Positions 11,695 through 30,254 of a stretch of DNA of 64,000 bases are shown piece by piece. The notes beneath the pieces were generated by a model. That model did no database searches and was not told the DNA's origin. It saw only the letters and a list, made by a program, of their open reading frames with translations. Where the stretch lies: the NCBI GenBank assembly GCA_964537935.1, contig CAZICT010000002.1, forward strand, positions 76,922-140,921, read 5' to 3'. The translations under genes and the position numbers were made by a program. The stretch's first letter is position 1, and each line of letters starts with the position of its first letter. This stretch comes from an uncultured Candidatus Saccharibacteria bacterium. GTDB taxonomy: Bacteria > Patescibacteriota > Saccharimonadia > Saccharimonadales > CAZICT01.

Positions 11695-12750
11695 ATGTTT
11701 CATGATATTCGCTTACAGGCGTTCCGCTCATATACGAATGAGTCTTTTGAGTTTACGCCGGGGGTAAACATCATTGTCGGTCCGAATGCCAGCGGAAAAA
11801 CCAATTTATTAGAGGCTCTTTTAATGATCGCAACCGGATCTTCCTACCGGGCACGCGACATCGAAGTTATTCAGCATGATGCTCCGTGGACACGCCTGGA
11901 CGTGTCAACCGATACTCAAAAACGCAGCGTAAAGTTAATACCACAGCAAAATGGAGTCGTACAGAAAGAGTTTATTATCGATAACAAGACATTTAAGCGC
12001 TTGAGTCTGCAGTACAGTATTCCGGTGGTGTTATTTGAGCCAAACCATTTATTACTACTGCATGGATCGCCTGACCTAAGACGTGAATACATAGATGAGC
12101 TGCTGTCTCAGATCGTGCCGGGATTTGATAATTTAAGGCGAAACTATAAACGGGCATTATCGCAACGAAATGCGCTCCTAAAGCTTGGAAACCCGTCACA
12201 GGACCAGCTTTTCGTGTGGAACTTGCGTCTAAGTGAGCTTGGCGGACAGATTGCCCTGCACCGCCAATCATTGGTTACAAAAATCGGACAAACTATTAGT
12301 GAAATTTATAATTCGCTTGCTCACACCGATGATACTGTTGAGATTGTTTATGCGAGCGTATGCGCCGGAGAACAATATGGCACCAAACTGCTTCAATTGC
12401 TTGAAAAGTCTCAAACTAAAGATCTGCAGAGAGGCTTCACTGGCTGCGGGCCGCACCGTGACGATATAGAAATCCGACTTCGTGGACATCTTGCTCAGGA
12501 AACCGCGTCGCGAGGCGAAATCAGAACACTACTACTGGCATTAAAAACCAAGGAACTGGAGCTTTTGGAAGAAAATCGGGATAAACGCCCACTGCTACTG
12601 CTTGACGATGTTTTTAGCGAGCTCGATGGTGCCCGCCGCAAGGCATTAACAGAGGTTATTCAAGGTTACCAAACATTTATCACCACCACTGACGCCGATG
12701 TAGTGGTCCAGCATTTCATGGACGCCTGCAACATAATCCCTCTAAGCTGA
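11695..12750 (+). CDS. recF: DNA replication/repair protein RecF
   Basis: 351-aa ORF. Walker A GPNASGKTNLLEAL and the C-terminal LLLLDDVFSELD signature. Confidence 0.93.
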   Translation: MFHDIRLQAFRSYTNESFEFTPGVNIIVGPNASGKTNLLEALLMIATGSSYRARDIEVIQHDAPWTRLDVSTDTQKRSVKLIPQQNGVVQKEFIIDNKTFKRLSLQYSIPVVLFEPNHLLLLHGSPDLRREYIDELLSQIVPGFDNLRRNYKRALSQRNALLKLGNPSQDQLFVWNLRLSELGGQIALHRQSLVTKIGQTISEIYNSLAHTDDTVEIVYASVCAGEQYGTKLLQLLEKSQTKDLQRGFTGCGPHRDDIEIRLRGHLAQETASRGEIRTLLLALKTKELELLEENRDKRPLLLLDDVFSELDGARRKALTEVIQGYQTFITTTDADVVVQHFMDACNIIPLS

Positions 12751-12753
12751 TTT

Positions 12754-13464
12754 TTATATCGGCTCAGTTATACGATAGCGTATTAAGTAGTTATCTGGAT
12801 TAAAACCAAGCGATCTGATATGTGTTAATGCATCACTTTTATACTGTTCAATCGTAGTATCTTTATGGGGTCCAAGATCTGCATTATTAAGGATAATTTT
12901 TATGTTTAAAACATAAATAGCGTTTCCGTCTTCAGATGCCTCATATGCACCGGTAATAGTATAGTGAAGGCTGCTTTCAGGAAGGTGTTTGGCGATAGGA
13001 TCTTCGGTATTGTCTTTGTCGGTTTCTTCAAGTTGGAGTATTTTTTGATCAGATGGTAATTGGTGGTAAGGGATATACTTCGCTTCAAAATTAAATGAGT
13101 GTTCATTAATAATTTCACCATTTACTGCTTCAATTGAATTAACTGAAAAAGCATATTGTCGGCCGGCAAATAATTCATCTAAGTACAGATATAGTGTCGA
13201 ACCTTCAATCTTAAAATATGAAACTAATTCTTCAGGGTCGTTAAGTCGCTCAAGATAATTAATATCTTCCTTAAGCTGTTTATTAAAAACCATCTTAATT
13301 GTAGTACTACTGGTAGCTATTTTACCGCGATCACCAGGAGTTATGGCTACTACCCTAAACTTAGAAGTAGAAATAATATATCCAATTAACAATATAATTA
13401 TGAGAAAACCACCAATTACTATCAGTAATCGCTGTTGTCGAATAGATGATTGCTTTTGGTTCAT
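12754..13464 (-). CDS. Bitopic membrane protein, last gene of the T4SS-like operon (PrgL/VirB8 position; function unproven)
   Basis: 236-aa ORF with one N-terminal TM segment (LLIVIGGFLIIILLIGYII). It starts 4 nt downstream of the CHAP gene stop. Confidence 0.6.
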   Translation of the reverse strand: MNQKQSSIRQQRLLIVIGGFLIIILLIGYIISTSKFRVVAITPGDRGKIATSSTTIKMVFNKQLKEDINYLERLNDPEELVSYFKIEGSTLYLYLDELFAGRQYAFSVNSIEAVNGEIINEHSFNFEAKYIPYHQLPSDQKILQLEETDKDNTEDPIAKHLPESSLHYTITGAYEASEDGNAIYVLNIKIILNNADLGPHKDTTIEQYKSDALTHIRSLGFNPDNYLIRYRITEPI

Positions 13465-13468
13465 ATTT

Positions 13469-14722
13469 CTATTCTATCCTCATAAATCCAGTTAACGCCG
13501 GCGAATTCATACTTTGGGTGGCCTCCTTGATGGTATTGCTCTCATTACCGCCAATCGATACATATGTTTCTGTACTAGCATCATAACTTACCACAATATT
13601 TACATGGGAGGGATATGGCCCTACACCTTCTTTATAAATCGCAATATCACCTGGTCTTGGTTCAAAACCCTGCTCTGTTGGTTCGTGGAAGAAGCCATTA
13701 TCTCTAGCGTAAGCCAACATACTCGCTACAGCCGGTATCGGCCCTTCTTCAAATGGTCTACCTGCTTCACGCAACACCCAACTTACAAAATATGCGCACC
13801 ACGCCAGATGATTATTATCTGTGTACTTAAGATAGCTACCGTCGGCTTCGTTAGCTCCAGCATCAAGTTCTCTACGGGCAATTTGTACTATACGCTCTCC
13901 TAGTGCCCCGGTTATCCCGTTTGAGCAAGAAATACCTCCCTGAAGACCTGCTAGAGCGGAGTAAACCACAAAAGCTCCATGCTGACTATTTGCAGGGTAC
14001 GAAAGTGAACCTCCATCAGTTTTTATCTGTCCCCAAGAAGTTGGGTTAAAGGCAGGGTCCCTTTCTCGATCAGCAATATTCATAACATAAGGAGAACCTT
14101 CAAAGCCCTGGGTGTCTCGGTCAAACCCTAGTTGCACTGCTTGGTTTATATATACAGACGCTCGACCGTTATAGCTAAAGAAAAGATCTTTGATTGCATC
14201 CGGTTGTGAATTACTTGTGCTTATCTCTCTATTTTCTTCTATAGGAGTACGTTGAGAAAAGTCCGTCTTCACCCTCTCAGCCATAAATAAAGTTTGACGT
14301 CTGAATTCTTCGTCTGTTACCTCTCCTTCGGGATATGGACCACCATCCCCGTTGTAAAACTGGTAAATGCCCTGGCCGTTACCTGGATTTCGACGTGCAA
14401 GTCCGGTCTCGAGTAGGTGAATAACGGCGAGTAAGGCCCACGGTACATCATGTTCTTGAGCTGCCTCTTCATAAAAAGGGCGGTTATCGTCGATTTGCTC
14501 TAACTGGGCATCGTTAAGAATTTCTCGTCCGGCGTAATCGGCGTTATTAATTTCTCCACTGGCACTTACTGATCCTGACGGGCTACAACCCGTTGCTGAA
14601 CTATAGTATGGGTAGTAGATTTCATCTCCTTCCGATAAAGCAGCGATTGGGGTATTTACTACAAACCCAAAACAGTATGTTAGTACTAATATGTATAGTA
14701 AGTATTTTTTAATCTTTATCAT
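13469..14722 (-). CDS. Secreted peptidoglycan hydrolase: lytic-transglycosylase-like N-domain plus CHAP amidase/peptidase C-domain
   Basis: SLT-like region VPWALLAVIHLLETGLARRNPGNGQGIYQF. CHAP motifs LAWCAYFVSWVLREAG (Cys), PSHVNIVVS (His) and IGGNESN. I prefer the ATG at 14722, which gives a signal-like MIKIKKYLLYILVL and an ATGA overlap with the upstream gene; the track start is 14746. Confidence 0.8.
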   Translation of the reverse strand: MIKIKKYLLYILVLTYCFGFVVNTPIAALSEGDEIYYPYYSSATGCSPSGSVSASGEINNADYAGREILNDAQLEQIDDNRPFYEEAAQEHDVPWALLAVIHLLETGLARRNPGNGQGIYQFYNGDGGPYPEGEVTDEEFRRQTLFMAERVKTDFSQRTPIEENREISTSNSQPDAIKDLFFSYNGRASVYINQAVQLGFDRDTQGFEGSPYVMNIADRERDPAFNPTSWGQIKTDGGSLSYPANSQHGAFVVYSALAGLQGGISCSNGITGALGERIVQIARRELDAGANEADGSYLKYTDNNHLAWCAYFVSWVLREAGRPFEEGPIPAVASMLAYARDNGFFHEPTEQGFEPRPGDIAIYKEGVGPYPSHVNIVVSYDASTETYVSIGGNESNTIKEATQSMNSPALTGFMRIE

Positions 14723-17700
14723 CGTCCATTCACCGACCAATGCCATGATTCACTCGGCAAATTATACAATCCATAATTTGCCGCATTTGCACTCAACCAA
14801 TTAAAGCAAGTACTTCCACTTGAACAGTTTCTGAAATCAAGCGCTTCTCCATTTTCATGATTTGAGGTTCCAGGACGAGCTGTAGGTGGGCTACATGCCC
14901 TTGAGGGCGTGTTGTCATTAGGGCAGCCGTGAGCAATACGCAATGCCTTTTGTTCGTCGTAGGATCGATACGCTCCGGCGGTTAAATTAACCCCGTCATC
15001 TTCAGCTGCTCGCAATAAGTTAATGACATTTTGAGCAATCGAAACATTAACATCAAAAGATACATTCCCACGAATAATACAGAGGCGAATCTCATAAAGG
15101 AGTACTTTACCTGGACCATATTTTTGAGCAATACCGCCGTCAGATATTTCTGGATCATCAGGACAACTCAAATCGGAGGTATCTGTACCACTCTCTATAG
15201 ACGTCGGTGTTGATGTGGAGGTATCAATGCCCTCGTCATACTCACCAGTAAAATGCATACTGCCCGCTTCTTCAACGGCCTCTTCAAGTAAACACGGATC
15301 AGCGTTTATGTTTACATCAAACGGCATATCATCAGGACGACCCACATCAAATACCCCTTCCGGGTTGGCTTCGAGTCGTCTATCGTATGATTCGTCACAC
15401 ATGTACTTTTCATTTACTTCTTCCTCGGTCATACCCGTTCCGTTATTAGCGGTAAATATTTCATGATCTGTGGGATACCCACTATTGATTACACCGTATG
15501 GGTTGCTGAGCGTAGCAGGTGGAAGTGCTTGACTGTGGGATGTGAATATTCCTGCAATTGAAGAAAAAGAAGATAGAAATGTTGATGGATTAAAGAAGCT
15601 GGCCATATTTTGAGTCATATTAACCGCAGTAACCGGCATATGCATTGCAAAGTTGCCAACGATACTCTCCTTTACGCTAGGTGAGAAGTAACGAGCAAAG
15701 AAACTTCTATTCTTAAGCTCGTATTTGTAGTTGTTATACATTTCTGCCTGAATTGAGGCGACTTCAGCATCTGATAAGTATTGACCACCAATCGTATCCG
15801 ATCTATCACCGCCTACTGACCCACCTAGGGAAGAGTTCTTCACAGCAATGCCAGCGTAGAGTGCTTCATAGGCATCGCCACCTTCTTCAGCGCCTGTAAT
15901 ACTGAAACCCAAAAACCAGTCGAGCGCTGTTTCCACAGCGCTTGCGATAACATCATCAAGCCCCGTTACTTCAAGTAGTTGCTGAATTACCTCGTCGATA
16001 CCTAGCGCGCTTGTAATTGCTGATACAGCATCATTAATAGCACCAACAATACCACCAATAGTTCCTCTATACAGGTCGCCTATACGGTCAATCGCACTCC
16101 ACCATGGTGCGCTAGTGAATCCAGCCCTGTCCTGCAATAGCTTCTTGTTAGGGCATACCAATTCACCAGGTTCTAGAATCTCGGGAGGCGTATTTGGGTT
16201 ATCATCACAATCTCGGCTAATTTGTGCTAATGCAGACACACTGCCAGGCTCCCAATATGCTGCTTGATATACTGGACTCTCTTCAAAATTATCAAATGTT
16301 TCAGCAAGTACTCTAGCATCCTCAGGGTCCATGTCTTCTCCAGCACGTTGTTGATCTGCTGCACTTAGTATCGTGGTGCCGAAGCCAGCATATTGATGCG
16401 CAAGGCTATCATATACAACTATGCTTAGCGCACCACTATCAACCGCACCTTGTATCTGGGCTATGGCATCTACAAGGCCTATTCCTGCCGCGAATGAAGC
16501 CAAGACTTTACGTAAACCAATATTCTTTATTCTAGCTGCCAAGTTATCTCCAACCCCATCACCGTCAATTGCCTCAACAGCTTCATCTACTGAGCTAGAA
16601 ACAGAATTACGGTCTGCATTATCTGCTGCCTCTACTCCTTCGGCATCTACGGTTTCTCCGTCTTCATTTGTTCGCGTTACGCGATCATTATCGGTGGCAC
16701 CTTTCCTGATGTCATCACACTTTTCCCCTCCCTCGAGCAAGCAATCAAGATATAAGCCATACCTTTCAGATACTCGACCAACGGTTTGTCTAACTGCATA
16801 TTGCTTGAAGGCGGTCTTTTTCTCTATATATTTTTCTCTTGTGTTATTTCTAGTTTTCTCAAATGGTTTCCATCTATTTACACCATAGTACTTCTTGAGT
16901 ATGCTGCGCATATGATGTCGCCTAATAATTTGTCGCGACTTTGTTTCTGATCTTGTGAATTCGTTAATAAACTTTCTAGCTTCACGAGAATCGAGATCTC
17001 TATATCTTCTGTCTGAGCTCGAGTCTACCCCTAAGTCTTCTAGTTGCCAGTTGGTCGGACGAGTATGTTGTCTGCCAAGTATTTCTCCTTGAGGGATTTT
17101 TGGAACTAACCGAACGTTATATTCTTGAATCAACTTCGATTCTAGGTTTGCCCCTCTCCAGTTCGTATAGAGGGTACTAAATACACCATTCCCTAAGTAC
17201 GTAAATCTATCACTCTCATTATTGAAATCAAGAACACCACTGCTCTCAAGTGACCTAATAATTAAATAACGGTTCATGTAGTACTCAAGCCTGCGTTCGA
17301 TAGCATACTCCGGTACTTGCCCTACCCGTTGTTCAATCTGCTCAATAATTGCAGTAACTTTGAAGGGCAACAAGAAAGAGATTAGCATCATTAAACCACC
17401 AATTAGGGTAAGTCCTAGGCTAACACCTATAAGTAATCCTTTTGACTTTAAATAAGAGTTTTGTCGTGCTTTAAGGTTAGCCTTCCAGTTAGAAGGGGGT
17501 ATGTTTGCAGATTCTTTCTCTGCTTTGCTTGTGAGTGGCTCGCTGGTGTCTTTATTCGCGTTACTTTCTGCAGCGGCAATTTCATCACCTGAGAGTATTT
17601 TTTTCGATTCGGAGCTTGACGGTGTAGCACCTTCGCTCGCACGATCTTCCATCGCCTTTTCTTCGGCTGCGTTGATGCCGGTCGTTTCGCGCAGAAACTC

Positions 17701-17748
17701 CGGTGTTATTTCTTCTTTTGCTGTTCGTTCATCTTGGTCTAAAGACAC
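14719..17748 (-). CDS. 1009-aa membrane protein with a C-terminal M15B/VanY-type D-Ala-D-Ala peptidase domain
   Basis: One TM segment near residue 110 (LLIGVSLGLTLIGGLMMLISFLLPF). The C-terminus has YRSYDEQKAL, SNHENGEALDF (SxHxxGxAxD) and ESWHWS (EWWH-like), the zinc-peptidase M15 motifs. Confidence 0.75.
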   Translation of the reverse strand: MSLDQDERTAKEEITPEFLRETTGINAAEEKAMEDRASEGATPSSSESKKILSGDEIAAAESNANKDTSEPLTSKAEKESANIPPSNWKANLKARQNSYLKSKGLLIGVSLGLTLIGGLMMLISFLLPFKVTAIIEQIEQRVGQVPEYAIERRLEYYMNRYLIIRSLESSGVLDFNNESDRFTYLGNGVFSTLYTNWRGANLESKLIQEYNVRLVPKIPQGEILGRQHTRPTNWQLEDLGVDSSSDRRYRDLDSREARKFINEFTRSETKSRQIIRRHHMRSILKKYYGVNRWKPFEKTRNNTREKYIEKKTAFKQYAVRQTVGRVSERYGLYLDCLLEGGEKCDDIRKGATDNDRVTRTNEDGETVDAEGVEAADNADRNSVSSSVDEAVEAIDGDGVGDNLAARIKNIGLRKVLASFAAGIGLVDAIAQIQGAVDSGALSIVVYDSLAHQYAGFGTTILSAADQQRAGEDMDPEDARVLAETFDNFEESPVYQAAYWEPGSVSALAQISRDCDDNPNTPPEILEPGELVCPNKKLLQDRAGFTSAPWWSAIDRIGDLYRGTIGGIVGAINDAVSAITSALGIDEVIQQLLEVTGLDDVIASAVETALDWFLGFSITGAEEGGDAYEALYAGIAVKNSSLGGSVGGDRSDTIGGQYLSDAEVASIQAEMYNNYKYELKNRSFFARYFSPSVKESIVGNFAMHMPVTAVNMTQNMASFFNPSTFLSSFSSIAGIFTSHSQALPPATLSNPYGVINSGYPTDHEIFTANNGTGMTEEEVNEKYMCDESYDRRLEANPEGVFDVGRPDDMPFDVNINADPCLLEEAVEEAGSMHFTGEYDEGIDTSTSTPTSIESGTDTSDLSCPDDPEISDGGIAQKYGPGKVLLYEIRLCIIRGNVSFDVNVSIAQNVINLLRAAEDDGVNLTAGAYRSYDEQKALRIAHGCPNDNTPSRACSPPTARPGTSNHENGEALDFRNCSSGSTCFNWLSANAANYGLYNLPSESWHWSVNGR

Positions 17749-17781
17749 AAAGGGTTACTCCACTTCGGTGTTCAAGGGTCA

Positions 17782-19695
17782 TTATACCCCAGGGTACAAA
17801 CGGTTTTCCAGGTCAATCGTTCCTTGAGGCTGGTTAAATTCGCCTTGCTGTTCAATTTGTTGAACCTGCTGAGGATTAGTGGTAATGAGCCCGGTTTCTG
17901 TTGGACTGGCTACAATCTGAATGTGGACGTGGTTTTGACCGGCAAAGAATAATCCTTGGCCAACCGGAAATTGACTTAGACGCTTCTTTTCTTCGGCGGT
18001 TAGTTTGAACACCTCAGACAACACATCAACCGCACTCGGAGACTGTTTTAAGAGTATTTGCATCGACGCGTTGGCTACGATTGCTCGGCCCATGCGGCTA
18101 CCCATAAAGTCTTCCACATCCTGCGTAATAGTTGTAATACCAAGGTTATATTTTCTTGCTCGTTTCGCCAGGCTAAATAGGAAATTAGCCGAATCTTCAT
18201 ACTTCATCAGCTGCCAAGCCTCGTCAACTACCAGTATTCGTTTCTTTTGATCGGTCTTTGTCTTGTTCCATATGTAATTAAGCACAATATACATCGCTAC
18301 CGGCCTTAGTTCATCTTCGAGGTCGCGGATGTTAAACACCACTAAAGGATTATTAATGTCGATATTGCTTTGCTGGGAAAAGATGCCGGCAAACGTACCG
18401 GTAGTATATTTACGCAATCGCTGGGCAAGTTGCGGCCCGTTGCCTCCCATATGCAGCAACGTGTCATAAAGGTCATTAATTGTCGGCGGCGGCGAGTTAT
18501 GAGTCAAGGGATCGTTGGTGATGCCTGCTTTGGCATAAGTTTCAATTAGTGCCGCATCCAGGTCAGCCTCTTCTGAAGGTGCAAGAGTTGGTGCAACCAC
18601 ACCGTTGCCTCCAGCGGCGGCCATCTGCGCCTGCGCACCACCCATCATTAGTCGTAAAAGTCCGTGTAGGGTTATAAGGTTACTTCTAAGAGCGTTATCG
18701 GCTTCTTCGGTGTCAACGACTTTTGGTATGTCAAACGGATTGATGCGGGTGGCCGAGTTAAGACTTAGTCGTACGTATGCGCCACCGACTGCCTCGGCCA
18801 TACGTTGATACTCATTTTCAGGGTCGATGATGAAGACTTCCGTACCGAACATCATACTGCGCAAGGCTTCAAGCTTAACAGTGAATGATTTACCTGCACC
18901 GGACTTGGCAAAAACAACCGAATTACCATTTTCTAAGGAGAAACGGTCAAAAATTACCAATCCTGAATTGTGCATATTAATGCCGTATAAAATTCCATTT
19001 TCCTGACTGAGCTCGGCTGAAGTAAACGGAAAGCTGGTCGATAGCGCGCCGGTGCTGAAGTTGCGCCGGATTTGCAGCTGATCAACAAAATGCGGAATGG
19101 TGCTGTTAAGTCCTTGCTCCTGCTGCGAGGTAGCGGGTTTTGAAAAGATTGATTGCTGGCCAAGCATTGACTCAACCTTGTGGGTAATAAACTCAAGCTC
19201 ATCTTTGCTTTCAGCGTAGAGCGTAAAGTAAAAACCAAAGCGGAAAAAGCGCTCCTCGCCGACCTGAAGTTTGTCACGCATTTCTTCGGCATCGAGAATG
19301 GCAGCTTGCTTACCCGGATCCCTGACGCGGCCCTTTTCTGCCTCTATCTGGATGCCGGCCTCAAGTTGGGAGACTTTTTTACGCAAGTTTTCTAATACGA
19401 CCTGGCTTTCCACCGGGTAAATATAAAGCGACATATCCATCACCTCATCGAGATTGACCATACTTGATAGCCATCCAGTAAAGACCTGGCGCGGATAACC
19501 ATAGACGTAATAGGTCCGGGCAATCCTGGTACCAAGTTGAAAGTGAGTGCCAAAAAACTCTATAGAACTCGGGGCAATAAAGTCACGCAGCGCTGTAATG
19601 CCTTTTTGAAAGGCAGCTTGGACTTCCTGCTCCTCACGGGCGCGTTGTGCCTGTGCTAAGGCAATTGGATCAACCGGCTGATTCTTTTTAGCCAT
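17782..19695 (-). CDS. virB4: VirB4/PrgJ/TraE-family type IV secretion ATPase
   Basis: 637-aa ORF. Walker A VVFAKSGAGKSFTVK and Walker B RILVVDEAWQLM. The N-domain pattern is ARTYYVYGYPRQVFTGWLSSM...SLYIYP. Confidence 0.85.
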   Translation of the reverse strand: MAKKNQPVDPIALAQAQRAREEQEVQAAFQKGITALRDFIAPSSIEFFGTHFQLGTRIARTYYVYGYPRQVFTGWLSSMVNLDEVMDMSLYIYPVESQVVLENLRKKVSQLEAGIQIEAEKGRVRDPGKQAAILDAEEMRDKLQVGEERFFRFGFYFTLYAESKDELEFITHKVESMLGQQSIFSKPATSQQEQGLNSTIPHFVDQLQIRRNFSTGALSTSFPFTSAELSQENGILYGINMHNSGLVIFDRFSLENGNSVVFAKSGAGKSFTVKLEALRSMMFGTEVFIIDPENEYQRMAEAVGGAYVRLSLNSATRINPFDIPKVVDTEEADNALRSNLITLHGLLRLMMGGAQAQMAAAGGNGVVAPTLAPSEEADLDAALIETYAKAGITNDPLTHNSPPPTINDLYDTLLHMGGNGPQLAQRLRKYTTGTFAGIFSQQSNIDINNPLVVFNIRDLEDELRPVAMYIVLNYIWNKTKTDQKKRILVVDEAWQLMKYEDSANFLFSLAKRARKYNLGITTITQDVEDFMGSRMGRAIVANASMQILLKQSPSAVDVLSEVFKLTAEEKKRLSQFPVGQGLFFAGQNHVHIQIVASPTETGLITTNPQQVQQIEQQGEFNQPQGTIDLENRLYPGV

Positions 19696-19713
19696 TGCTT
19701 CCCTCGTGCATTA

Positions 19714-20622
19714 TCATAGTTGGAGTTCCCTGTTTAAGTTGGGCTGCTCGGCATTGCCTTCACCTTTTTGGACAATCGGCACTGACAAATCATCGAAGTT
19801 CTTTAACTGCTGCCTGGTAGCGGTGTCTGGATTGTAGCTGTCGTAATAAAGCTCGATCAATTCCTGTGTATCAAGCGGCAAGCCCGGTATTCCGCATTGC
19901 TGTAGACCACCTAAGACGGCTTGTATACGATTACGAAGTTCGTCCTTTGCTTTAGCCAGGTCAGCTTCGTTGATAGTTACGTGCTGCTCCTTCGTGTTGA
20001 ATATTCCTTTCAGACCGCTGAAGAAATTCTTACTTTGCGTAATAGCCTTCTGAATGTCAGTGACTGGAAAATATGGAATAACTACATAGAACTTTTTATC
20101 CATGATGTTCGTTTGTTGTGACAAGCCATCAATAAAACCGATATAATCTTCCATCAGCAGCGATAGCAGCATATTGTCGTGTTCAGTCCGGATCTTATCA
20201 AGCTTCTCTATATAAGGACGCAGGTCCACCTTTTGCGAGCGGACGAATATTTGCACCGGAAAATAGAGTGAGTTCAAAAAGCCCTGATAGCCATACTCTA
20301 CCCCTTCTCTTTCCTGAGGACTCATAAGGTCGAAGTTGATAGATTTGACCATAATTACTGACCGAAACGAACCGTCGTTCATAATGACGATGCCATCGCG
20401 AATCTCAGCTATTTGCAGCGTGTTCTGAGTACTGTTCGGGTTGGTTTTAACAGCTACTGGTTGCGCTGGTGGTTGAGGGGGTTGGCCGGGTGGCACGTAC
20501 GCATTTCCAGATACCGCCGGTTGAGGGCCGTAAGCACCATACGCAGACTGGTCTGCCGGTAAAGCAGCAGACGGTACAGGTTGCGTTCCGTTAGATTGTT
20601 GATTAGCGGAATTTGGATCCAT
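19714..20622 (-). CDS. Hypothetical T4SS-associated protein: P/Q-rich N-terminus plus a VirB4-N-domain-like region with no ATPase
   Basis: 302-aa ORF with no Walker motifs. IAEIRDGIVIMNDGSFRSVIMVKSINFDLMSPQEREGVEYGYQGFLNSLYFPVQIFV and ...ELIELYYDSYNP resemble VirB4 N-terminal blocks by eye. Confidence 0.5.
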   Translation of the reverse strand: MDPNSANQQSNGTQPVPSAALPADQSAYGAYGPQPAVSGNAYVPPGQPPQPPAQPVAVKTNPNSTQNTLQIAEIRDGIVIMNDGSFRSVIMVKSINFDLMSPQEREGVEYGYQGFLNSLYFPVQIFVRSQKVDLRPYIEKLDKIRTEHDNMLLSLLMEDYIGFIDGLSQQTNIMDKKFYVVIPYFPVTDIQKAITQSKNFFSGLKGIFNTKEQHVTINEADLAKAKDELRNRIQAVLGGLQQCGIPGLPLDTQELIELYYDSYNPDTATRQQLKNFDDLSVPIVQKGEGNAEQPNLNRELQL

Positions 20623-20658
20623 AGTTATTGTTTGCCCACCTAAGGATTGGGATACGAT

Positions 20659-21756
20659 TTAATGTAGCGAAATCACCACCTCGTCATTTGGTGGATCCTT
20701 CTTGCGCGACTTTTCTGCCTGCCGGGCAATGGTCGCCACATCTAAATCGTCATTGTTAGCAAGTTCCAGTATAGCAGGGTCAGCTTTAGGTGTCACTGGC
20801 GCTTGTGCTTGAGTATTCGCCTGTGTTTGCTGATTGGGCTCAGCTTCTGCTTGCTCGGACAGAGGCTTAATAGTCCTAAGGTTTGAGTTTGCTTGTTCAG
20901 ATCTTTCTTGTGCGTCTTTTATCTTTTGTATTAACGCTTCTTCGTCTTCTGTAGGCGATTGACCGGCAGTCTTATTAACCGGCTGTGGTTTGACCGACTG
21001 GCTGCCATCAAATATTCCATAACCCTGCTCGGTTATCTGTGAGGCATCCGGCTGGTTCAGGAACCAATAGTCCGAAGGCTGGGTTGACGATTGGTCTTGT
21101 TGTTCTTGCTGTTGCAAGCGTTGCAATAACTGCTTGCGCCGAGCTTGGTCCGAAGTTTGCATAAGTTGGCTCAAGTGTTGAGCGGTAGGATTGCCCTGTT
21201 CGTCAAGCATATCTGCAGATACATAGTCATCTTCTGCGACCTGTTGAGGAAAGAATGCTGAAGGATCGACCAATCTATCAGAGTCACCTTGGTTCTGAAA
21301 GTATGCAGGCTGGGCAGACATGTTGACGCTGACGTTTTTGACGATCCAGCCACGACTGTCAATTGTATTAGCTAACGCCTCTAGGCGACTCTTAACTTCC
21401 TCTTTCGTATAGCCCTTGGTTAAGTTTTTCTCTTCTTTTTTAGGCGCGGTAATTGTAACTAGCTGTTTTGCCCCTGATTGGTCCCATACACGCTTACGCG
21501 GCTTTATAAAAAACCGGATTTTAGCAAGCAACCAAACTTCACTTGACTGATCTTTGCCAAAAGGCGCCGCCAGTAGTCCAAAAAAGATAATGACCGGCAA
21601 AAAAGGAACTGCTAAAAGCGGTTGTACCAGTGCGAGCTGAAAAGCTACATAACCGGTAATCAATACAATAATCGCATAAATAAACTGCTTGAGCGTCAGT
21701 GGCCCAAGTAGCTTATCTTCTGCTTCGATGTCTTGTAAAACTTTATACGTCGCCAT
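20659..21756 (-). CDS. PrgI-family (VirB3-like) membrane protein with a long Q/E-rich C-terminal extension
   Basis: 365-aa ORF. The N-terminus MATYKVLQDIEAEDKLLGPLTLKQFIYAIIVLITGYVAF plus a second TM segment is the PrgI-family hallmark. Confidence 0.7.
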   Translation of the reverse strand: MATYKVLQDIEAEDKLLGPLTLKQFIYAIIVLITGYVAFQLALVQPLLAVPFLPVIIFFGLLAAPFGKDQSSEVWLLAKIRFFIKPRKRVWDQSGAKQLVTITAPKKEEKNLTKGYTKEEVKSRLEALANTIDSRGWIVKNVSVNMSAQPAYFQNQGDSDRLVDPSAFFPQQVAEDDYVSADMLDEQGNPTAQHLSQLMQTSDQARRKQLLQRLQQQEQQDQSSTQPSDYWFLNQPDASQITEQGYGIFDGSQSVKPQPVNKTAGQSPTEDEEALIQKIKDAQERSEQANSNLRTIKPLSEQAEAEPNQQTQANTQAQAPVTPKADPAILELANNDDLDVATIARQAEKSRKKDPPNDEVVISLH

Positions 21757-21763
21757 GCATCAA

Positions 21764-24373: not shown

Positions 24374-24474
24374 GCCTATATACTAACAGAAAATCTAATA
24401 ACAGGGATGGTTTTAAGTACTTTTAACAAGAAATTAGCTTCTAAGACTTTAAGATAGTTTTTATCTAGTCTTAT

Positions 24475-25593
24475 CTAATTAGAGTCTTCGTTGTGAGCGG
24501 AGAAAATAACCTCTCGTCCAAACTCTACCCAAATAAGATCAGTATCATCGTTTGACAGTGGGTTTGGAATTGCCTCAAGCTGTATTATCACTTCGTCTTC
24601 AACCCAACCTAGTCCTGCGCCTTCTCTGCGTATAATGGTATGAACTTCCATTGAGCGTGGGCCCATTTCTGCGGTTGTATTGAAGGTGGCGTCTCGATTT
24701 ACAAAAACATATAACTTATCAACATCAAACTGAGGCCAACGTTCCGTATGTGCAGTTTTTAGCTCGTCGATTTGTCTGCTTGCACTGGTAATATAATCGC
24801 GCTTTAGATCGTTAGGTGCAGACAGAAACATATCAAGTACTCCAGGGTCAAAAACATTGTTTGTGCTAGCTTCCTCCACATCTAAGAGTCTATCAATAAT
24901 CTGGGCGGCGGCTTGGTCTAGATTGTCGTAATCAAAGTCTGTATAACGGGCGGGAACTATATCCGATGGTTGAAGTTCCCTGCCTTCAACAATAAACCTT
25001 TCAGTTGTCGGCGGCTCATAAAAGGCGTCAATGCCTACAAATTCATAAGGAATTACATATTGCACTGGATCAACTTCATCTGGTTGTTCGACTATTTGAA
25101 CAATTTCGGGTGTAACCCCGTGAGTGTTTGCTGATTCAACTTCTGCTTGTGTGTTTGGAGACTCGAGAGGTGTAGACGTGGTTATTGCCTCAGGCTCTGT
25201 TACAAGAGGCTCTACGATGATTGCCTCTTCAGTTATAGGAAGCTCGTTAATCGCTTCACCTATTTCTGTTTCTCGGTCTTCTAGGTTGGTGGTATCTTGT
25301 TGCTCCTCAGATACTGGCACTTCAGCTGACCCGCCTCTTGTTAGAGCAAACCCCGCTACACCAGTGGTTGCAACTAGAGTAAGTGCAATGATTGTATTAC
25401 GTTTTCCCTTATTTTTCTTTGGAGTAAAGCTTACTTCTTCTGATACCTCTGGCTCATTAACATTAGGTTGCTGATGAGTTTCCTTATCTACGATTGAGGT
25501 AATATTACCCCTGCTTGTATCAACGAAATACTCTTCATAAAGCGCCCTAAAGTCGCCTTCGGAATAGACTTCTGGCCTTTGGTCTGTTGACAT
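24475..25593 (-). CDS. Bitopic acidic protein, first gene of the T4SS-like operon
   Basis: 372-aa ORF with a single TM segment (TIIALTLVATTGVAGFAL), an E/T/P-rich linker and a ~170-aa C-terminal globular region. Confidence 0.6.
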   Translation of the reverse strand: MSTDQRPEVYSEGDFRALYEEYFVDTSRGNITSIVDKETHQQPNVNEPEVSEEVSFTPKKNKGKRNTIIALTLVATTGVAGFALTRGGSAEVPVSEEQQDTTNLEDRETEIGEAINELPITEEAIIVEPLVTEPEAITTSTPLESPNTQAEVESANTHGVTPEIVQIVEQPDEVDPVQYVIPYEFVGIDAFYEPPTTERFIVEGRELQPSDIVPARYTDFDYDNLDQAAAQIIDRLLDVEEASTNNVFDPGVLDMFLSAPNDLKRDYITSASRQIDELKTAHTERWPQFDVDKLYVFVNRDATFNTTAEMGPRSMEVHTIIRREGAGLGWVEDEVIIQLEAIPNPLSNDDTDLIWVEFGREVIFSAHNEDSN

Positions 25594-25779
25594 AATTCAC
25601 CACCTCTCTTAGATTCTCGATTACTTAAATAAAGATTGATATTTTGATTTGATTTTTATTATACCATGATGATTACATTTAGTCTATAGTAAAATATTTT
25701 ATAAAAACTCAAGATTGTTAAACTTGTATATATGGTGTTACCCTATTCGCAGGTGTGGAAGATTTAAAATAGGAAAAGT

Positions 25780-26685
25780 ATGGTGCGAGTAGCGCGAATT
25801 TTAAGCCTTTTATTACTTATAGGCATATCTAACGTAGCAGTAAAGCCGGTTTCTGCTGAAGGTATAGGTTATCGCGGTGGCTATAATTTTACTTACGTTA
25901 TCCCAGGCACTAATAATGGTAAATCTGCTGATGAAGCAGGAGTTATGCCCATACTTGGTTACTGGGAGTCTTCGTCAAATAGCAGAGATGATCCGAATAT
26001 AACATACGTTTACGACGGAAACGCCGTGAGCGTCAACGGCAACGCATACTACACTTTTACAATTGAATTCTGTGAAGGTGAGGGTTGGCTGTGCCCTGGT
26101 GAAGAAGATAATAGATCTGGTGCTCCCAATGAAGGTGAATTAGTTACAGACATAGTGACTTACGTTCACCGCGATCCGATCTCTGGTGAATTACGTGGAT
26201 ACGAATGTATTATTCATGAGGGTAATAACAGGCAGGACTGTGTAAATAAAATTGCCCAAGGGGCAACTGGGCTCGACCTGCAGTATATAAGTAGTTTTGG
26301 TGGCAGAAATGTTTTTAATAATGAATTTGCTAATCAAGGCGAGAATCCCGTAGAGCAAGATCCTACACCATCAGAAAATGAAGGAGACCCTACAGAAGTA
26401 CCTATTTCAAATATTGAGCTAGACTGTGAATCTAATAATCTCAATTCAGGCAATTGCAAAATCATCGAATATCTGGTTACGTTTATAAACGTGCTGTCTG
26501 CGCTATTCGGGATAGTTGCAGTGACGATGATTGTCTACGCCGGTATTCGCTACACTATGTCACAAGACAACCCCCAGACAGCATCTGAGGCCAAGGAGCG
26601 TATCCGCAATGTGGTTATCGCGGTGGTGGCCTACATATTTACCTATGCATTCTTGAACTACCTGATACCGGGCGGACTGTTTTAA
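25780..26685 (+). CDS. T4SS pilin-like protein (VirB2/TrbC-like C-terminal hairpin) with a large Cys-containing ectodomain, paralog 0
   Basis: Signal peptide MVRVARILSLLLLIGISNVAVKPVSA. The C-terminus IVAVTMIVYAGIRYTMSQDNPQTASEAKERIRNVVIAVVAYIF shares the motif found in the five downstream paralogs. Confidence 0.65.
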   Translation: MVRVARILSLLLLIGISNVAVKPVSAEGIGYRGGYNFTYVIPGTNNGKSADEAGVMPILGYWESSSNSRDDPNITYVYDGNAVSVNGNAYYTFTIEFCEGEGWLCPGEEDNRSGAPNEGELVTDIVTYVHRDPISGELRGYECIIHEGNNRQDCVNKIAQGATGLDLQYISSFGGRNVFNNEFANQGENPVEQDPTPSENEGDPTEVPISNIELDCESNNLNSGNCKIIEYLVTFINVLSALFGIVAVTMIVYAGIRYTMSQDNPQTASEAKERIRNVVIAVVAYIFTYAFLNYLIPGGLF

Positions 26686-26687
26686 CG

Positions 26688-27845
26688 TCAATAAGCTGGA
26701 TCAAATCCATTCGCAAGAGCGCCTAAACGCCAGGCGGTTTGACCGCCTACTCTTTCTTCTCCACCTATAATTACTATATTTTTAATACCGAGCCTTTTGA
26801 TCTCAGAAGCTGTTTCAACTGGAATTCTATCCCGCTCCACATACAGTACTGGTCCCCTTTTACCCGCTGAATAGGTGCTGGCTAGAACAGCGTCAGTTTC
26901 TGCATCAGAGTTAACGATATAGGCGGTATCAGCGGAGCTGCCGTACCTGACTCGACTTATGTATGTAGCGGTTTGATAACGGTTACTGCCAGCAAACCTT
27001 TGTACTTGCGCCTGGGGAAATTGTTCCTGAATTTCTGATTGGGTTTCGCTTGAAATAACATCTACGCCCCCAAGCAGAACAATCTTGTTGGGTTTAATTT
27101 TTTGCATATACTCAAGCGTAGCCGGATGCATGCCCTCATTTGTTATAAATAGCGCATTACCTTCTTCGTATGCCGATTGCATGAGTGCGGCATCAGTCTT
27201 CTTGTAAGCATTTACCAGATAAACAGTGCGGTGCTGGAAACCATAGTATTTACTTAGGTTGATAGCGGTTTCGATGCGAGACTCGCCCGCCCTCCTGTCA
27301 ATACGTTTAATATAGCCGCGAAGGCGCGACATCATGTTTTCGTTTACTGCATTCTCACCGCCAATAACAACTGCCCGCTCAGGATTCAGGCGTTGTATTT
27401 CTGCGATCACTGCCTGATATGTAGTTGTGTCTGAAGTAGATCGTGGAAGATAAAGAAGCGGAAAGTTGGGCGTCAGACTGGTGGCTAAGACTGCATCTGG
27501 ATACTGATAGCCATTAACCAGCACAACTACGCTTGCACCTCTCGGAAATCTTGCCTTTGATACCTCGATAGCTGAAGTAAATCGGTCATTTCCGCCTATG
27601 CGCGTGTAGACGCGTTGAGCTTCACTAATTTTTTGTTCGGATATGTTTATCCAGGCATTTTCGGGCAAAAAGCGTTCGCCTTCTACTAATGATTCTTGGT
27701 TAACCTGTTGAGTACGGTTGTTCACTGATTGATAGACGACGTAGCCGCCGACACCAAGCAAACTAACTATTCCCGTGACAATCAAAACCGGCACTAGTGC
27801 TATGCCGACCGTGTTTTTGCTCAATCTTTGTTTGTGGTTTTTCAT
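26688..27845 (-). CDS. Cell-wall-binding repeat 2 (CWB2) protein, three repeats, N-terminal TM/signal
   Basis: RIGGNDRFTSAIEVSK, RRAGESRIETAINLSK and RFAGSNRYQTATYISR each begin a CWB2-like repeat. Confidence 0.75.
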   Translation of the reverse strand: MKNHKQRLSKNTVGIALVPVLIVTGIVSLLGVGGYVVYQSVNNRTQQVNQESLVEGERFLPENAWINISEQKISEAQRVYTRIGGNDRFTSAIEVSKARFPRGASVVVLVNGYQYPDAVLATSLTPNFPLLYLPRSTSDTTTYQAVIAEIQRLNPERAVVIGGENAVNENMMSRLRGYIKRIDRRAGESRIETAINLSKYYGFQHRTVYLVNAYKKTDAALMQSAYEEGNALFITNEGMHPATLEYMQKIKPNKIVLLGGVDVISSETQSEIQEQFPQAQVQRFAGSNRYQTATYISRVRYGSSADTAYIVNSDAETDAVLASTYSAGKRGPVLYVERDRIPVETASEIKRLGIKNIVIIGGEERVGGQTAWRLGALANGFDPAY

Positions 27846-27952
27846 AACTTTGTCTTTTAATTTTCTTACTCTATGATTTAATATACAAGTAATATGCCGA
27901 ATGTCAAACAGATTATGCTTGCACCGGCCTTTTATGTAGACTAGATATAAAT

Positions 27953-28582
27953 ATGACTAAAAACATAACAAATCTAAATCACCTCAAGACAAAGGTTATA
28001 GTTACTGCTTTCATCGTTGCTGTATTAGCTGTTCTACTATTTCCTGGCAACACCTTTGCCCAGAGCGACTCTGGTGCCTTTGATGACCCGAGCGAGTCAC
28101 CAGGAAATACTTCCGATGTGGGACCGACAACAACAGGAACAACTGACAACAGGAGCGACGGTTTTAGATTCGATAACCCTAATGATAGGAGTGGCAACGG
28201 AGGAGATTCTGATTTTTTGGGTGCCGGCAGCGGTTGTAATAACAGTGAGTTCCTCGGGTTTCCTACATGGTATAAATACCTGTCTGTCACTTCGGATGGA
28301 TCGGGCGGATGTAACGTAGAGCTGCCACAAAAAGATGGTGAGACTGATGTTATTACAACAGTGGCCGCCATTGGCTTTGCGATATTTGAAATACTGTTAC
28401 GTATAAGCGCATTTTTAGCGATAGGCTTTGTTATTTACGGTGGCTATAAATACATGCTAAGCCAAGGTGAGCCAGATAGACTAAAGGGTGCCAGGAGCAC
28501 AATAATAAATGCATTAATAGGTTTAGTGATATCGATTTTATCTGTCGCTATTGTTAATCTTATTGCAGGTAGTATCACATGA
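27953..28582 (+). CDS. T4SS pilin-like protein, paralog 1
   Basis: Signal peptide ...LLFPGNTFAQ. The C-terminus is FLAIGFVIYGGYKYMLSQGEPDRLKGARSTIINALIGLVISIL. Confidence 0.7.
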   Translation: MTKNITNLNHLKTKVIVTAFIVAVLAVLLFPGNTFAQSDSGAFDDPSESPGNTSDVGPTTTGTTDNRSDGFRFDNPNDRSGNGGDSDFLGAGSGCNNSEFLGFPTWYKYLSVTSDGSGGCNVELPQKDGETDVITTVAAIGFAIFEILLRISAFLAIGFVIYGGYKYMLSQGEPDRLKGARSTIINALIGLVISILSVAIVNLIAGSIT

Positions 28583-28887
28583 TATTTAAGCAATTATTTA
28601 TAGCTATAGGACAGACTATAAATCCTACAGAGATTGATATCCCTCGTGTTACGCCATCCACCGGAGACGGTGGCACCATCGACACGGTATTGAGGGTAGT
28701 GTTTGGCATAGCAGGTGCGATAGCGGTAATAATGGTTACAATTGGTGGTCTTCAATATGTATTATCTCAAGGTAATCCGCAGTCTACCGCCAAAGCAAAG
28801 GATACAATACTTTATTCCCTTGTGGGCTTGGTGATAGTAATATTCGGATACTTTATAGTTGGTTTTGTTGCAGGTAGAGTTGCATGA
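28579..28887 (+). CDS. T4SS pilin-like protein, paralog 2 (short)
   Basis: ATGA overlap with paralog 1. Contains AIAVIMVTIGGLQYVLSQGNPQSTAKAKDTILYSLVGLVIVIF. Confidence 0.7.
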   Translation: MIFKQLFIAIGQTINPTEIDIPRVTPSTGDGGTIDTVLRVVFGIAGAIAVIMVTIGGLQYVLSQGNPQSTAKAKDTILYSLVGLVIVIFGYFIVGFVAGRVA

Positions 28888-29342
28888 AAAGGTTGATTTA
28901 TAAAATAAGCGTTGCCCTAATAGTATTTTTTACAGTAGCACCTGGTGCTGTCATTGCTGCTGAAGATCCTGGTGGTAATCCACCACAGCCAAACCCTAAC
29001 GCAAAAGTTAATGTCATAAACCCTAAATTGTGCAACGACTTACCAGTAAATGAAAAGCCAATAGTCTGTGAAGAAAATTATGATCAGGGGCCAGATAAAG
29101 AAAATGGTAACCGGATATATGGCCCAAACGGCACACTCACTAAAGTGGCCAACATACTGGCTTTGGTGGTGGGCGTAGCGGCAGTTATAGTTATCATTAT
29201 CGCAGGCTTTCAATATGTTCTGTCGTCCGGAGATTCAGCCAAGGTTAATACTGCAAAAAATATGATCATATATGCGATTGGCGGACTTCTTGTTACAGTA
29301 TTTGCAAGGGCAATAATAATATTTGTAGTAAGTAGACTATAA
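28884..29342 (+). CDS. T4SS pilin-like protein, paralog 3
   Basis: ATGA overlap with paralog 2. Signal peptide ...APGAVIAA. Contains VAAVIVIIIAGFQYVLSSGDSAKVNTAKNMIIYAIGGLLVTVF. Confidence 0.7.
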   Translation: MKRLIYKISVALIVFFTVAPGAVIAAEDPGGNPPQPNPNAKVNVINPKLCNDLPVNEKPIVCEENYDQGPDKENGNRIYGPNGTLTKVANILALVVGVAAVIVIIIAGFQYVLSSGDSAKVNTAKNMIIYAIGGLLVTVFARAIIIFVVSRL

Positions 29343-29355
29343 AAGGAGATAATAA

Positions 29356-29775
29356 ATGAAACGATTAGTAACACTAGCTTTGGCAGGCTTCCTGGTTTTC
29401 GGCGTGGGTGCCCTACTTCCGGCTGCTGTTGGGGCTGAAACTGCAAAAGATTATGTCTGTGAGGGTGTAGGCTATACCGGCGCAAGCTGTCCGGATACAA
29501 ATGCCGAAGGGAGTGTACAGCGTATTGTAGGAACAGTTATTAACATATTAAGCGTAATCGTCGGTGTCGTGGCGGTTATTATGATTATTATCGGAGGCTT
29601 TAAGTACATTACCTCTAGCGGTGACTCTAATAATGTTTCTAGCGCTAAGAACACCATCCTTTACGCAATAGTAGGGCTGGTAATAGTAGCCCTTGCTCAA
29701 GTAATAGTCATCTTTGTGCTCAACCGCGCCGATCCGCCAACTGACGATGGAAGCGGAATTATACGTTTGACTTGA
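29356..29775 (+). CDS. T4SS pilin-like protein, paralog 4
   Basis: AGGAG RBS and a signal peptide. Contains VVAVIMIIIGGFKYITSSGDSNNVSSAKNTILYAIVGLVIVAL. Confidence 0.75.
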   Translation: MKRLVTLALAGFLVFGVGALLPAAVGAETAKDYVCEGVGYTGASCPDTNAEGSVQRIVGTVINILSVIVGVVAVIMIIIGGFKYITSSGDSNNVSSAKNTILYAIVGLVIVALAQVIVIFVLNRADPPTDDGSGIIRLT

Positions 29776-29831
29776 TGCACCGTTAAATTATTTGGTATAA
29801 ATAACGTTATAGAATAACGAAAGGTTAATAA

Positions 29832-30254
29832 ATGACAAAACTAAAACAACTGCTTCTAAGCCTAATATTGCTGGCCGTGCCAGTAGTTGCGCCGCTTGCT
29901 TTGACAAGTGGTGCTCAAGCTCAAGTCAATCCCGGTTGTTTAGATGATACAGGTAACCCTGAGGACTGTCTTCGAGGTGGGGCCTGCATTGGCGATGATT
30001 GTCTAACAGAAAATGCTGACGACCGTGTTAGTGGCATGATTAATACTATTATTAACATTTTCTCTGTGGTTGTCGGTGTGGTGTCGGTCATAATGATTAT
30101 AGTCGGTGGATTTAAGTACATTACCTCAGGCGGTGACTCTGGAAATGTATCGAGCGCGAAGAACACCATCCTTTACGCTATCGTTGGTCTAATCATAGTT
30201 GCGCTAGCACAAGTCATAGTTCAGTTTGTACTAAATCGGGCTACTTCTGAATAA
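29832..30254 (+). CDS. T4SS pilin-like protein, paralog 5 (recent duplicate of paralog 4)
   Basis: Contains VVSVIMIIVGGFKYITSGGDSGNVSSAKNTILYAIVGLIIVAL. It shares exact DNA runs with paralog 4, for example aagaacaccatcctttacgc at 29647-29666 and 30159-30178. Confidence 0.75.
   Translation: MTKLKQLLLSLILLAVPVVAPLALTSGAQAQVNPGCLDDTGNPEDCLRGGACIGDDCLTENADDRVSGMINTIINIFSVVVGVVSVIMIIVGGFKYITSGGDSGNVSSAKNTILYAIVGLIIVALAQVIVQFVLNRATSE

Follow-up and report, generated by a model that had tools for sequence, protein, structure and literature searches.

The 64,000-nt stretch of DNA analysed here (hereafter the window), from an uncultured Candidatus Saccharibacteria bacterium, carries beside recF a chromosomal type IV secretion system (T4SS) locus that is very probably an environmental Saccharimonadales orthologue of the conserved Saccharibacteria/Patescibacteria T4SS (SEML1_0005-0019 of Candidatus Southlakia epibionticum ML1) and would serve as a non-conjugative host-contact conduit. 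Judged by its sequence, the machine is composed of a membrane platform derived from the mating-pair formation type MPF_FATA, three envelope proteins encoded after virB4, and PrgF/VirB2-type pilins amplified six-fold. The locus is the canonical, published Patescibacteria T4SS, borne close to the origin by all ultrasmall epibionts of the Saccharibacteria type, and is already known, because every element of the interpretation given in an initial annotation of this DNA, which had implied novelty, is in print: the locus, the pilin array, the missing relaxase and type IV coupling protein (T4CP), and the proximity to dnaA (PMC7427843, PMC10633639, PMC12102498, PMC12857230). What the window adds is one more member, carried by an environmental Saccharimonadales genome, and no new kind of system. 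In the Patescibacteria, a very large radiation whose members are mostly uncultured, the T4SS is among the few machines known to be essential for living as an epibiont.

McLean et al. 2020 (PMC7427843) described a conserved T4SS region of Saccharibacteria (TM7x) with homologs of VirB4, VirB6 and VirB2 and an array of 4-6 small proteins carrying Sec signals. By transposon sequencing (Tn-seq), Wang et al. 2023 (PMC10633639) found the T4SS genes SEML1_0006-0019 of S. epibionticum to be essential in co-culture, the essential pilins lying within a Gram-positive-like cluster that has neither a coupling protein nor a relaxase; in the supplementary tables of that study, 0005-0011 and 0014-0019 are essential, and the NTF2-like 0012, upstream of VirB6, is non-essential. 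Quinonero-Coronel et al. 2025 (PMC12102498), in a survey of the phylum, reported a VirB4 of MPF_FATA ancestry with TrsD adjoining it, arrays of 2-11 pilin genes that are ~25% identical, relaxases that occur rarely, and location near dnaA/dnaN, and a 2025 FEMS review (PMC12857230) sums up the findings on Patescibacteria T4SS. The initial annotation had proposed a device for host contact, uptake or effector delivery, which matches the published interpretation and the essentiality in S. epibionticum.

An open reading frame (ORF) map of the whole window was combined with a Pfam scan of 53 ORFs, 43 of them outside the T4SS block. As initially annotated, the minus strand carries eight genes in the same direction between 25593 and 12754, whose products are, in this order, 372, 869, 365, 302, 637, 1009, 425 and 236 aa long; the six pilin genes on the plus strand (25780-30254) face away from them. 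Successive minus-strand genes are separated by gaps of 101, 7, 36, 18, 33 and 4 nt, with one 28-nt overlap. The ATGA overlaps ascribed to this block are 4-nt overlaps in the pilin array (28579-28582 and 28884-28887); the pilins are divergent as described, but the CWB2 gene grouped with them lies on the minus strand, antiparallel within the array and not transcribed together with them. The block starts 3 nt past the end of recF (12750), a distance that was given correctly, and the dnaA-recF cluster (8472-12750) is convergent on it. That the locus also lies beside oriC we infer solely from the dnaA-dnaN-recF genes and a local cluster of three one-mismatch DnaA boxes within 105 bp (8312-8416) just upstream of dnaA; this cluster is suggestive, DnaA boxes across the window being no more frequent than chance (16 found vs 15 expected). 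The AT-rich region between the two gene sets presumably holds the promoters. It includes a minus-strand promoter-like site, TAGACT-17-TATAAT with a TG (25686-25658), which is a consensus match from a promoter/terminator scan that barely exceeded shuffled sequences and was used for this one plausible site only.

The ATPase of the platform is a VirB4 of the CD1110/MPF_FATA type. It matches NCBIfam NF045971 (CD1110 family; E 6e-108, 362 bits, cutoff 325), with the Mycoplasma integrative and conjugative element (ICE) VirB4 as second-best family (NF045975, E 4e-77), and is further linked to the Thermoanaerobacter VirB4 domain in the PDB (4ag5, E 3.6e-47), to TrwK, and to pCF10 PrgJ (phmmer, E 3e-43); the motifs KSGAGKSF and VVDEAWQL were confirmed. 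Residues 27-590 align to positions 179-732 of the NF045971 profile, the first ~180 profile positions being absent. In three VirB4 models, the adjacent 302-aa protein aligns to the initial ~100-250 positions; it matches NCBIfam TrsD (E 9e-6), VirB4_plasma (E 6e-6) and positions 2-100 of the CD1110 profile, and has a precomputed annotation as PF26593 (TraC-like). Since the ATPase match begins at profile position 179 and the 302-aa gene encodes the missing N-terminal part, VirB4 is, on these alignments, split into two genes, one for a TrsD-like N-domain protein and one for the ATPase. The 365-aa protein matches Pfam PrgI over residues 5-91 (E 1.3e-9), with transmembrane (TM) segments at 15-68, and is PrgI/VirB3-like. 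The 869-aa protein is predicted to begin with a signal peptide and an ecto-domain, followed by a TM core at ~180-470 and, at the C-terminus, a large helical domain. Neither this protein nor six of its homologs matched a VirB6 family in the local Pfam and NCBIfam collections (the Pfam copy lacked PF19590), and Pfam TrbL was weakly matched by 2 of 26 orthologs; the database protein identical to it and ~95% of its listed homologs carry PF19590 (TrbL_3). The top Foldseek matches in the PDB of its AlphaFold2 (AF2) model (predicted local distance difference test, pLDDT, 73.8) are TrwI/VirB6 chains of the R388 T4SS (7o3v_F/G/J and 8rt9_F; prob 0.93-0.98, E 0.08-0.2, TM-score up to 0.46). With moderate confidence, we regard it as an extended VirB6-type protein. 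Influenza HA2 coiled-coils, the only PDB matches of a 26-ortholog profile of this family, were rejected as spurious. The VirB4, PrgI/VirB3-like and VirB6/TrbL assignments of the initial annotation are therefore upheld, the last of them moderately.

All six pilins match PF18895 (T4SS_pilin), paralogs 2-6 at E 2e-6 to 1e-13, and NCBIfam NF045849 (Mycoplasma ICE pilin-like; E 7e-6 to 1.7e-10, one above cutoff), and some also match TrbC/VirB2 (up to 4e-7). Their N-terminal parts are variable, pairwise identity among the paralogs is 21-25%, and the shared part is a C-terminal 2-TM hairpin with a G..Y..S.(G/D)...AK loop. In hhalign, a profile built from the six aligns to pCF10 PrgF (E 4.3e-5, probability 69%) over both TM helices and the loop, where MSQDNPQT corresponds to MSNDDPRT; PrgF also weakly matches pilin ORFs in four related loci. 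The premise of the initial annotation that pCF10-type channels have no VirB2 pilin no longer holds: conjugation of pCF10 requires PrgF, which is a VirB2-like pilin, and nearly all conjugative plasmids of Gram-positive bacteria carry PrgF-like proteins (bioRxiv 10.64898/2025.12.18.695078). The derived picture of a hybrid, a monoderm core fused to pilins, is not supported, given the alignment to PrgF and the matches to NF045849. The simplest reading is prgF, amplified six-fold, followed by prgH-I-(trsD)-J-K, which would be a native monoderm layout with no diderm graft, the array representing an amplified PrgF-type pilin of monoderm origin.

The pilin family at large is vast: a profile search of 1.84 billion representatives returned 77,148 clusters at 50% identity (E up to 1e-3). 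Among the matches listed, the best are predicted to be polyproteins in which the pilin 2-TM unit is repeated 6-17 times in tandem, for example, P0139 (1775 aa), P0140, P0138 and P0149; one polyprotein cluster has a member bearing the label Candidatus Altiarchaeales (MCK4491598.1). The polyproteins may be genuine fusions, or may reflect read-through where the genetic code was called wrongly.

The three genes after virB4 encode envelope proteins. The 1009-aa protein has an acidic N-terminus, a TM segment at 103-136, a conserved body of ~850 aa, and a VanY/M15 domain at residues 900-995 (Pfam VanY E 2e-10; profile vs PDB LdcB/VanY-type enzymes 1e-15). The 425-aa protein matches Pfam CHAP (E 5e-9) and, by profile vs PDB, CwlO (E 6e-5) and the Tn916-like Orf16 hydrolase (E 0.07); residues E113, G126 and C317 are invariant in its family, and a VirB1/PrgK-like role seems probable. 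Its annotated SLT domain is weakly supported (MltC/MltF/EmtA, E 0.006-0.9, residues 67-131), whereas the annotated CHAP domain and the M15/VanY end of its larger neighbour were recovered. The 236-aa protein had been taken for a bitopic VirB8-like protein. Its AF2 model (pLDDT 66) has Foldseek matches to Ig-like and S-layer domains, alongside a weak Pfam Big_5 match, and none to NTF2/VirB8 folds; a word-indexed homolog search returned only the query protein, and in S. epibionticum the NTF2-like protein is encoded upstream of VirB6. The protein is probably not VirB8/PrgL-like, a verdict held with moderate confidence because the 16 usable sequences come mostly from one subfamily and the model reaches a pLDDT of only 66.

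Two further envelope proteins are probably lineage-specific, at least at the sequence level. The 372-aa protein, with one TM segment (residues 66-86) and 75 D+E vs 26 K+R, has no Pfam, NCBIfam or PDB match and no homolog in 80 related loci or a slot-specific ORF set; it occupies the slot held in S. epibionticum by the non-essential SEML1_0012. For the CWB2 protein, no homolog was found in the same 80 loci, the slot-specific ORF set or the PDB. In relatives, the slots on either side of the VirB6-like gene form a hypervariable accessory position filled by genes for 230-470 aa, nearly all BLAST singletons (L006, L020, L024, L044, L051, L057, L065, L070, L007, L014, L016 and other related loci).

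A VirB4 scan of one genome per GTDB species yielded at least 579 relatives, the best 80 of which (loci L001-L080) were used for the comparison of loci; these are all Saccharimonadales/Saccharibacteria metagenome-assembled genomes, with VirB4 at 84-90% identity. The recurrent gene order is ComF, Hsp20, pilin array, VirB6-like, PrgI, TrsD, VirB4, large protein, hydrolase, ~250-aa bitopic protein, recF, dnaN and dnaA. In all 57 loci whose downstream flank extends to 9 kb or more, recF lies 4.6-8.5 kb after virB4, and the pilin array is found in 46 of 50 loci with upstream flank. PrgI is present in 76/80 loci, a TrsD-like protein (62-82% identical) in 79/80, and the 1009-aa family directly downstream of virB4 in 78/80; the 236-aa family holds the place just ahead of recF in 21 related loci. 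Relative to the window, median identity stands at 86.5% for VirB4, 72% for TrsD, 75% for DnaA, 69% for DnaN and 55% for RecF, a gap between VirB4 and DnaA that is partly inflated because the loci were chosen by VirB4 similarity. The medians are lower for PrgI (45%), the VirB6-like protein (32%) and the pilins (40-50%), and across the 80 loci identity is no more than 25-50% for the operon's membrane and surface parts. The strong conservation of VirB4 and the fixed origin-proximal position hold across dozens of species, and the T4SS block is, to judge from these comparisons, a vertically inherited core locus fixed in the chromosome.

The same data bear on whether the block is an ordinary ICE or conjugation module that has its relaxase, coupling protein and integrase genes beyond the ends of the window. 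The genes and their order (VirB4, PrgI, VirB6-like, hydrolase) do resemble prgH-I-J-K-L of pCF10, and T4CP genes can be far from virB4 (PMC12102498). However, the position between Hsp20/ComF and recF-dnaN-dnaA is the same in 57/57 species-level relatives, GC content does not differ between the block and its flanks, and VirB4 is at least as conserved as DnaA. VirD4, relaxase, integrase and replication genes were not found among the 53 Pfam-scanned ORFs across the 64 kb; pCF10 PcfC (VirD4) and PcfG (relaxase), used as phmmer queries, matched nothing in the window or the 80 related loci, which also contain no T4CP, relaxase, integrase or replication gene within 10 kb on either side. Outside the block, the Pfam matches are housekeeping genes only, including yidC, rnpA, ValRS, TsaD, Mur ligase, GroEL and ArgRS. 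No more than 103 Patescibacteria genomes have a relaxase, and in S. epibionticum the T4CP homolog is not essential (PMC12102498). An ICE is accordingly highly improbable, a reading largely refuted by synteny: with recF after virB4 in 57/57 loci, the block has a fixed chromosomal position, and the initial view that it is no conjugative element holds. Its list of absentees from the 64 kb (VirD4, relaxase, VirB11, VirB7/9/10, integrase and replication genes) was likewise borne out by Pfam, NCBIfam and phmmer. A diderm MPF_T (VirB/D4) system was rejected, as no scanned ORF of the window has a Pfam or NCBIfam match to VirB7/9/10, VirB11 or VirB5; an origin of the locus from a prophage or tail lysozyme was also considered and rejected.

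We propose that pilins and hydrolases reach the membrane via Sec and that the hydrolases would open the epibiont's own wall; the VirB4/TrsD/VirB3/VirB6 platform would then extract pilins from the membrane and polymerise them into a short pilus or tube bridging to the host bacterium. The resulting conduit could deliver Sec-dependent proteins to the host envelope, take up host material, or both. It would not conjugate DNA, since no T4CP or relaxase was found in the 64 kb, and such a role would explain why the machine is essential for epibiotic growth. Tubular structures at the Patescibacteria-host interface have been suggested to be T4SS pili (10.64898/2026.06.21.733656). Several points weigh against this proposal. 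The function of these T4SS is inferred throughout, and the essentiality data come from S. epibionticum, which belongs to a different, oral genus. Elsewhere in the genomes of Patescibacteria, genes of the VirD4 type are common (5,713 homologs, most of them distant from virB4; PMC12102498), so that a remote T4CP may exist outside the 64 kb. Finally, no VirB8-like fold was identified in the locus, and the VirB6 assignment is moderate (Foldseek E ~0.1, TM-score up to 0.46).

Two other functions were considered. It might import nucleic acids, as do H. pylori ComB and the archaeal Ced system, using host DNA or RNA as a source of nucleotides. ComF is encoded two genes from the pilin array, both in the window and in relatives, the missing T4CP would not conflict with import, and VirB4 weakly matches CedB and CedD, although the CedB match is limited to the P-loop region and scores 55 bits vs a cutoff of 700. 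Furthermore, nucleotide synthesis is missing in Patescibacteria, a cultured member of which feeds on host RNA and shows tubular interface structures (10.64898/2026.06.21.733656). Yet deletion of comEC in S. epibionticum is viable and abolishes competence while the T4SS is still essential (PMC12857230), which argues that transformation-type uptake is not the essential role, and no nucleic-acid-binding component was recognised in the locus; we consider uptake of this kind quite unlikely. The machine might instead be limited to making an adhesive pilus, or a fibre on the surface, with which to attach to the host, translocating nothing. Six divergent pilins with variable, Cys-containing ecto-domains would fit a fibre, as would the missing T4CP, and their diversification recalls the antigenic and host-range variation of the Bartonella and Anaplasma VirB2 arrays (PMC12102498). 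Type IV pili, however, already serve adhesion and motility in Saccharibacteria (PMC12857230), and the retention of an extended VirB6-like channel protein and, after virB4, of an enzyme-tipped 1009-aa protein suggests more than a fibre; pure adhesion is unlikely, and the host-contact conduit remains the reading we favour.

The 1009-aa protein offers a possible view of what such a conduit does. Among 73 long orthologs, the ~850-aa body is conserved and the C-terminal enzyme module varies: 63 have a VanY/M15-type end, and others end in modules as different as a GDSL lipase and a polyuronate lyase (Table 1). A GDPD-like C-terminus in the L006 ortholog, seen as a motif with no phmmer match in the PDB, is not claimed. 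This swapping of modules resembles that of polymorphic effectors and toxins and hints that the post-VirB4 protein acts on the host envelope. It is conceivable, if doubtful on present evidence, that the ~1000-aa protein is a host-directed working head rather than a VirB1-type housekeeping wall opener; were this so, the T4SS would present an enzyme matched to the host envelope in order to breach it. The modular C-terminus, of which a non-exhaustive literature search found no description, may be unreported, and it provides a testable handle on how the machine acts on the host envelope.

Table 1. Coordinates of the T4SS genes and neighbouring origin genes in the window, followed by C-terminal ends of 1009-aa orthologs in related loci (positions within each locus)
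Feature	Position	Strand	Evidence
dnaA	8472-9839	+	Pfam
dnaN	10175-11266	+	Pfam
23S-rRNA-IVP-family gene between dnaN and recF	11314-11658	+	Pfam PF05635, E 7e-34
recF	11695-12750	+	Pfam
Bitopic protein, 236 aa: TM helix, Ig-like beta-sandwich, small alpha/beta domain (predicted)	12754-13464	-	AF2/Foldseek
Secreted or anchored wall hydrolase, 425 aa: SLT-like N-domain, CHAP/NlpC-P60 C-domain	13469-14746	-	Pfam, profile
Bitopic envelope protein, 1009 aa, with C-terminal VanY/M15 peptidase	14719-17748	-	Pfam, profile vs PDB
VirB4 ATPase, CD1110/MPF_FATA type, 637 aa	17782-19695	-	NCBIfam NF045971, PDB, PrgJ matches
TrsD/TraC-like, free-standing VirB4 N-terminal-domain homolog, 302 aa	19714-20622	-	NCBIfam, PF26593
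PrgI/VirB3-like, 365 aa: N-terminal 2-TM PrgI domain, long Q/E-rich C-terminal extension	20659-21756	-	Pfam
Extended VirB6/TrbL-like polytopic protein (probable PrgH counterpart), 869 aa	21764-24373	-	PF19590 annotation, AF2/Foldseek
Bitopic strongly acidic protein, 372 aa, first gene of minus-strand block	24475-25593	-	TM, composition
AT-rich divergent intergenic region, presumed promoters	25594-25779		Sequence
Pilin paralog 1, 301 aa: signal peptide, then a large, variable ecto-domain with Cys and a VirB2/PrgF-like 2-TM hairpin at the C-terminus	25780-26685	+	PF18895 E 1.9e-8, NF045849 E 1.3e-7
Membrane-anchored CWB2-repeat wall-binding protein, 385 aa	26688-27845	-	Pfam CW_binding_2 E 3e-31, three repeats
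Pilin paralog 2, 209 aa	27953-28582	+	PF18895
Pilin paralog 3, 102 aa	28579-28887	+	PF18895
Pilin paralog 4, 152 aa	28884-29342	+	PF18895
Pilin paralog 5, 139 aa	29356-29775	+	PF18895
Pilin paralog 6, 140 aa	29832-30254	+	PF18895
EEP + CHAP end	L004:12000-15902		
EEP + CHAP end	L077:11924-15748		
GDSL lipase end	L052:11935-14982		
EEP + PL7 polyuronate lyase end	L013:11940-16817		1uai E 5.7e-28
PtpB-like phosphatase end	L046:11995-17115		1ywf E 4e-9
HExxH metalloprotease-like end	L078:10732-14109		Motif only
SxxK-peptidase-like end	L039:11643-14879		Motif only
HxH module	L001:3306-6326		Motif only

Other features of the window were noted in passing. Upstream of the origin cluster, a TTG-started gene (2888-5692) encodes a 934-aa GDSL lipase/acylhydrolase protein (E 1e-13) that is unrelated in sequence to the post-VirB4 family. 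The PF05635 gene, a 23S-rRNA-intervening-sequence family member, lies in some relatives inside the T4SS block between PrgI and TrsD (L004 ~8486, L033 ~5663, L077 ~8572, L007 ~19389) and appears to move around. At 31749-33459, small genes for a PD-(D/E)XK (31887-32243) and a GIY-YIG (32443-32757) endonuclease stand amid two tRNA-Ser and one tRNA-Arg genes, and may be homing-type or selfish. Further along, a CarS-like gene (59403-59921; PF01864, E 3.7e-27), of the CDP-archaeol synthase lipid-synthesis family better known from archaea, adjoins a CDP-alcohol phosphatidyltransferase gene (60583-61266).

The locus was also compared with its nearest known systems. Bordetella Ptl, an analogy drawn by McLean et al. 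(PMC7427843), and Brucella VirB export Sec-delivered substrates without a coupling protein, as proposed for this locus, but they are diderm MPF_T systems with VirB7/9/10/11, and homology is limited to VirB4 and VirB6. The Mycoplasma ICE (ICEA) shares with the window a 2-TM pilin-like protein, a VirB6-like protein and VirB4 encoded together (CDS15-CDS16-CDS17) in a reduced-genome monoderm; it differs in being mobile, with a T4CP (CDS5) and a DDE recombinase, and in having no wall hydrolases, as the bacterium has no wall. The pCF10 order of prgF, prgH, prgI, prgJ, prgK (a hydrolase with CHAP) and a bitopic protein is mirrored in the window, although the hydrolase function of PrgK is spread over two genes and the last gene is probably not NTF2-like. 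The prgH-I-J-K-L order of the initial annotation accordingly stands for H-I-J-K, to which prgF can be added, but probably not for the L/VirB8 slot. The pCF10 system has the PcfC T4CP, the PcfG relaxase, oriT, the adhesin PrgB and the NTF2-type PrgL/PrgD; it is plasmid-borne, with a single pilin and an unsplit VirB4, whereas the window has no T4CP or relaxase, six pilins, a split VirB4, VirB6 and PrgI proteins three- to four-fold larger, and a fixed chromosomal locus.

By comparison, SEML1_0005-0022 of S. epibionticum, which also has no locus-linked T4CP or relaxase, maps onto the window gene for gene. SEML1_0005, an exported Ig-like protein annotated with Ig/FnIII and OmpATb-N domains, corresponds to the 236-aa gene, the lysozyme-type hydrolase 0006 to the 425-aa gene, and the essential 0007 (1113 aa) to the 1009-aa gene; 0008 is VirB4, 0009 TrsD-like, 0010 PrgI and 0011 VirB6-like, and 0014-0019 are six PF18895 pilins in a divergent array; the sizes also agree, at ~1000-1100 aa for the large protein, ~300 aa for the TrsD-like one and ~900-1000 aa for the VirB6-like one. 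Beyond them, 0020 (Hsp20), 0021 (ComF-like, ~225 aa) and 0022 (tRNA-Ser) correspond to positions 30373-31838 of the window. There are also differences: S. epibionticum has a second large polytopic protein (0013) and the NTF2-like 0012 upstream of VirB6, where the window has one VirB6-like gene and, in the slot of 0012, the unrelated-looking 372-aa acidic protein; its hydrolase combines phage-tail lysozyme and glucosaminidase rather than SLT-like and CHAP domains; and in the window alone a CWB2 gene interrupts the pilin array. With the Patescibacteria-clade T4SS as a whole (PMC12102498, PMC7427843), no substantive difference was seen: the window has a VirB4 of the MPF_FATA-related Patescibacteria clade, placed there by profile and identity, adjacent TrsD, PrgI and VirB6-like genes, a PF18895 array of VirB2-like pilins, no linked relaxase or T4CP, and the same proximity to dnaA/dnaN.

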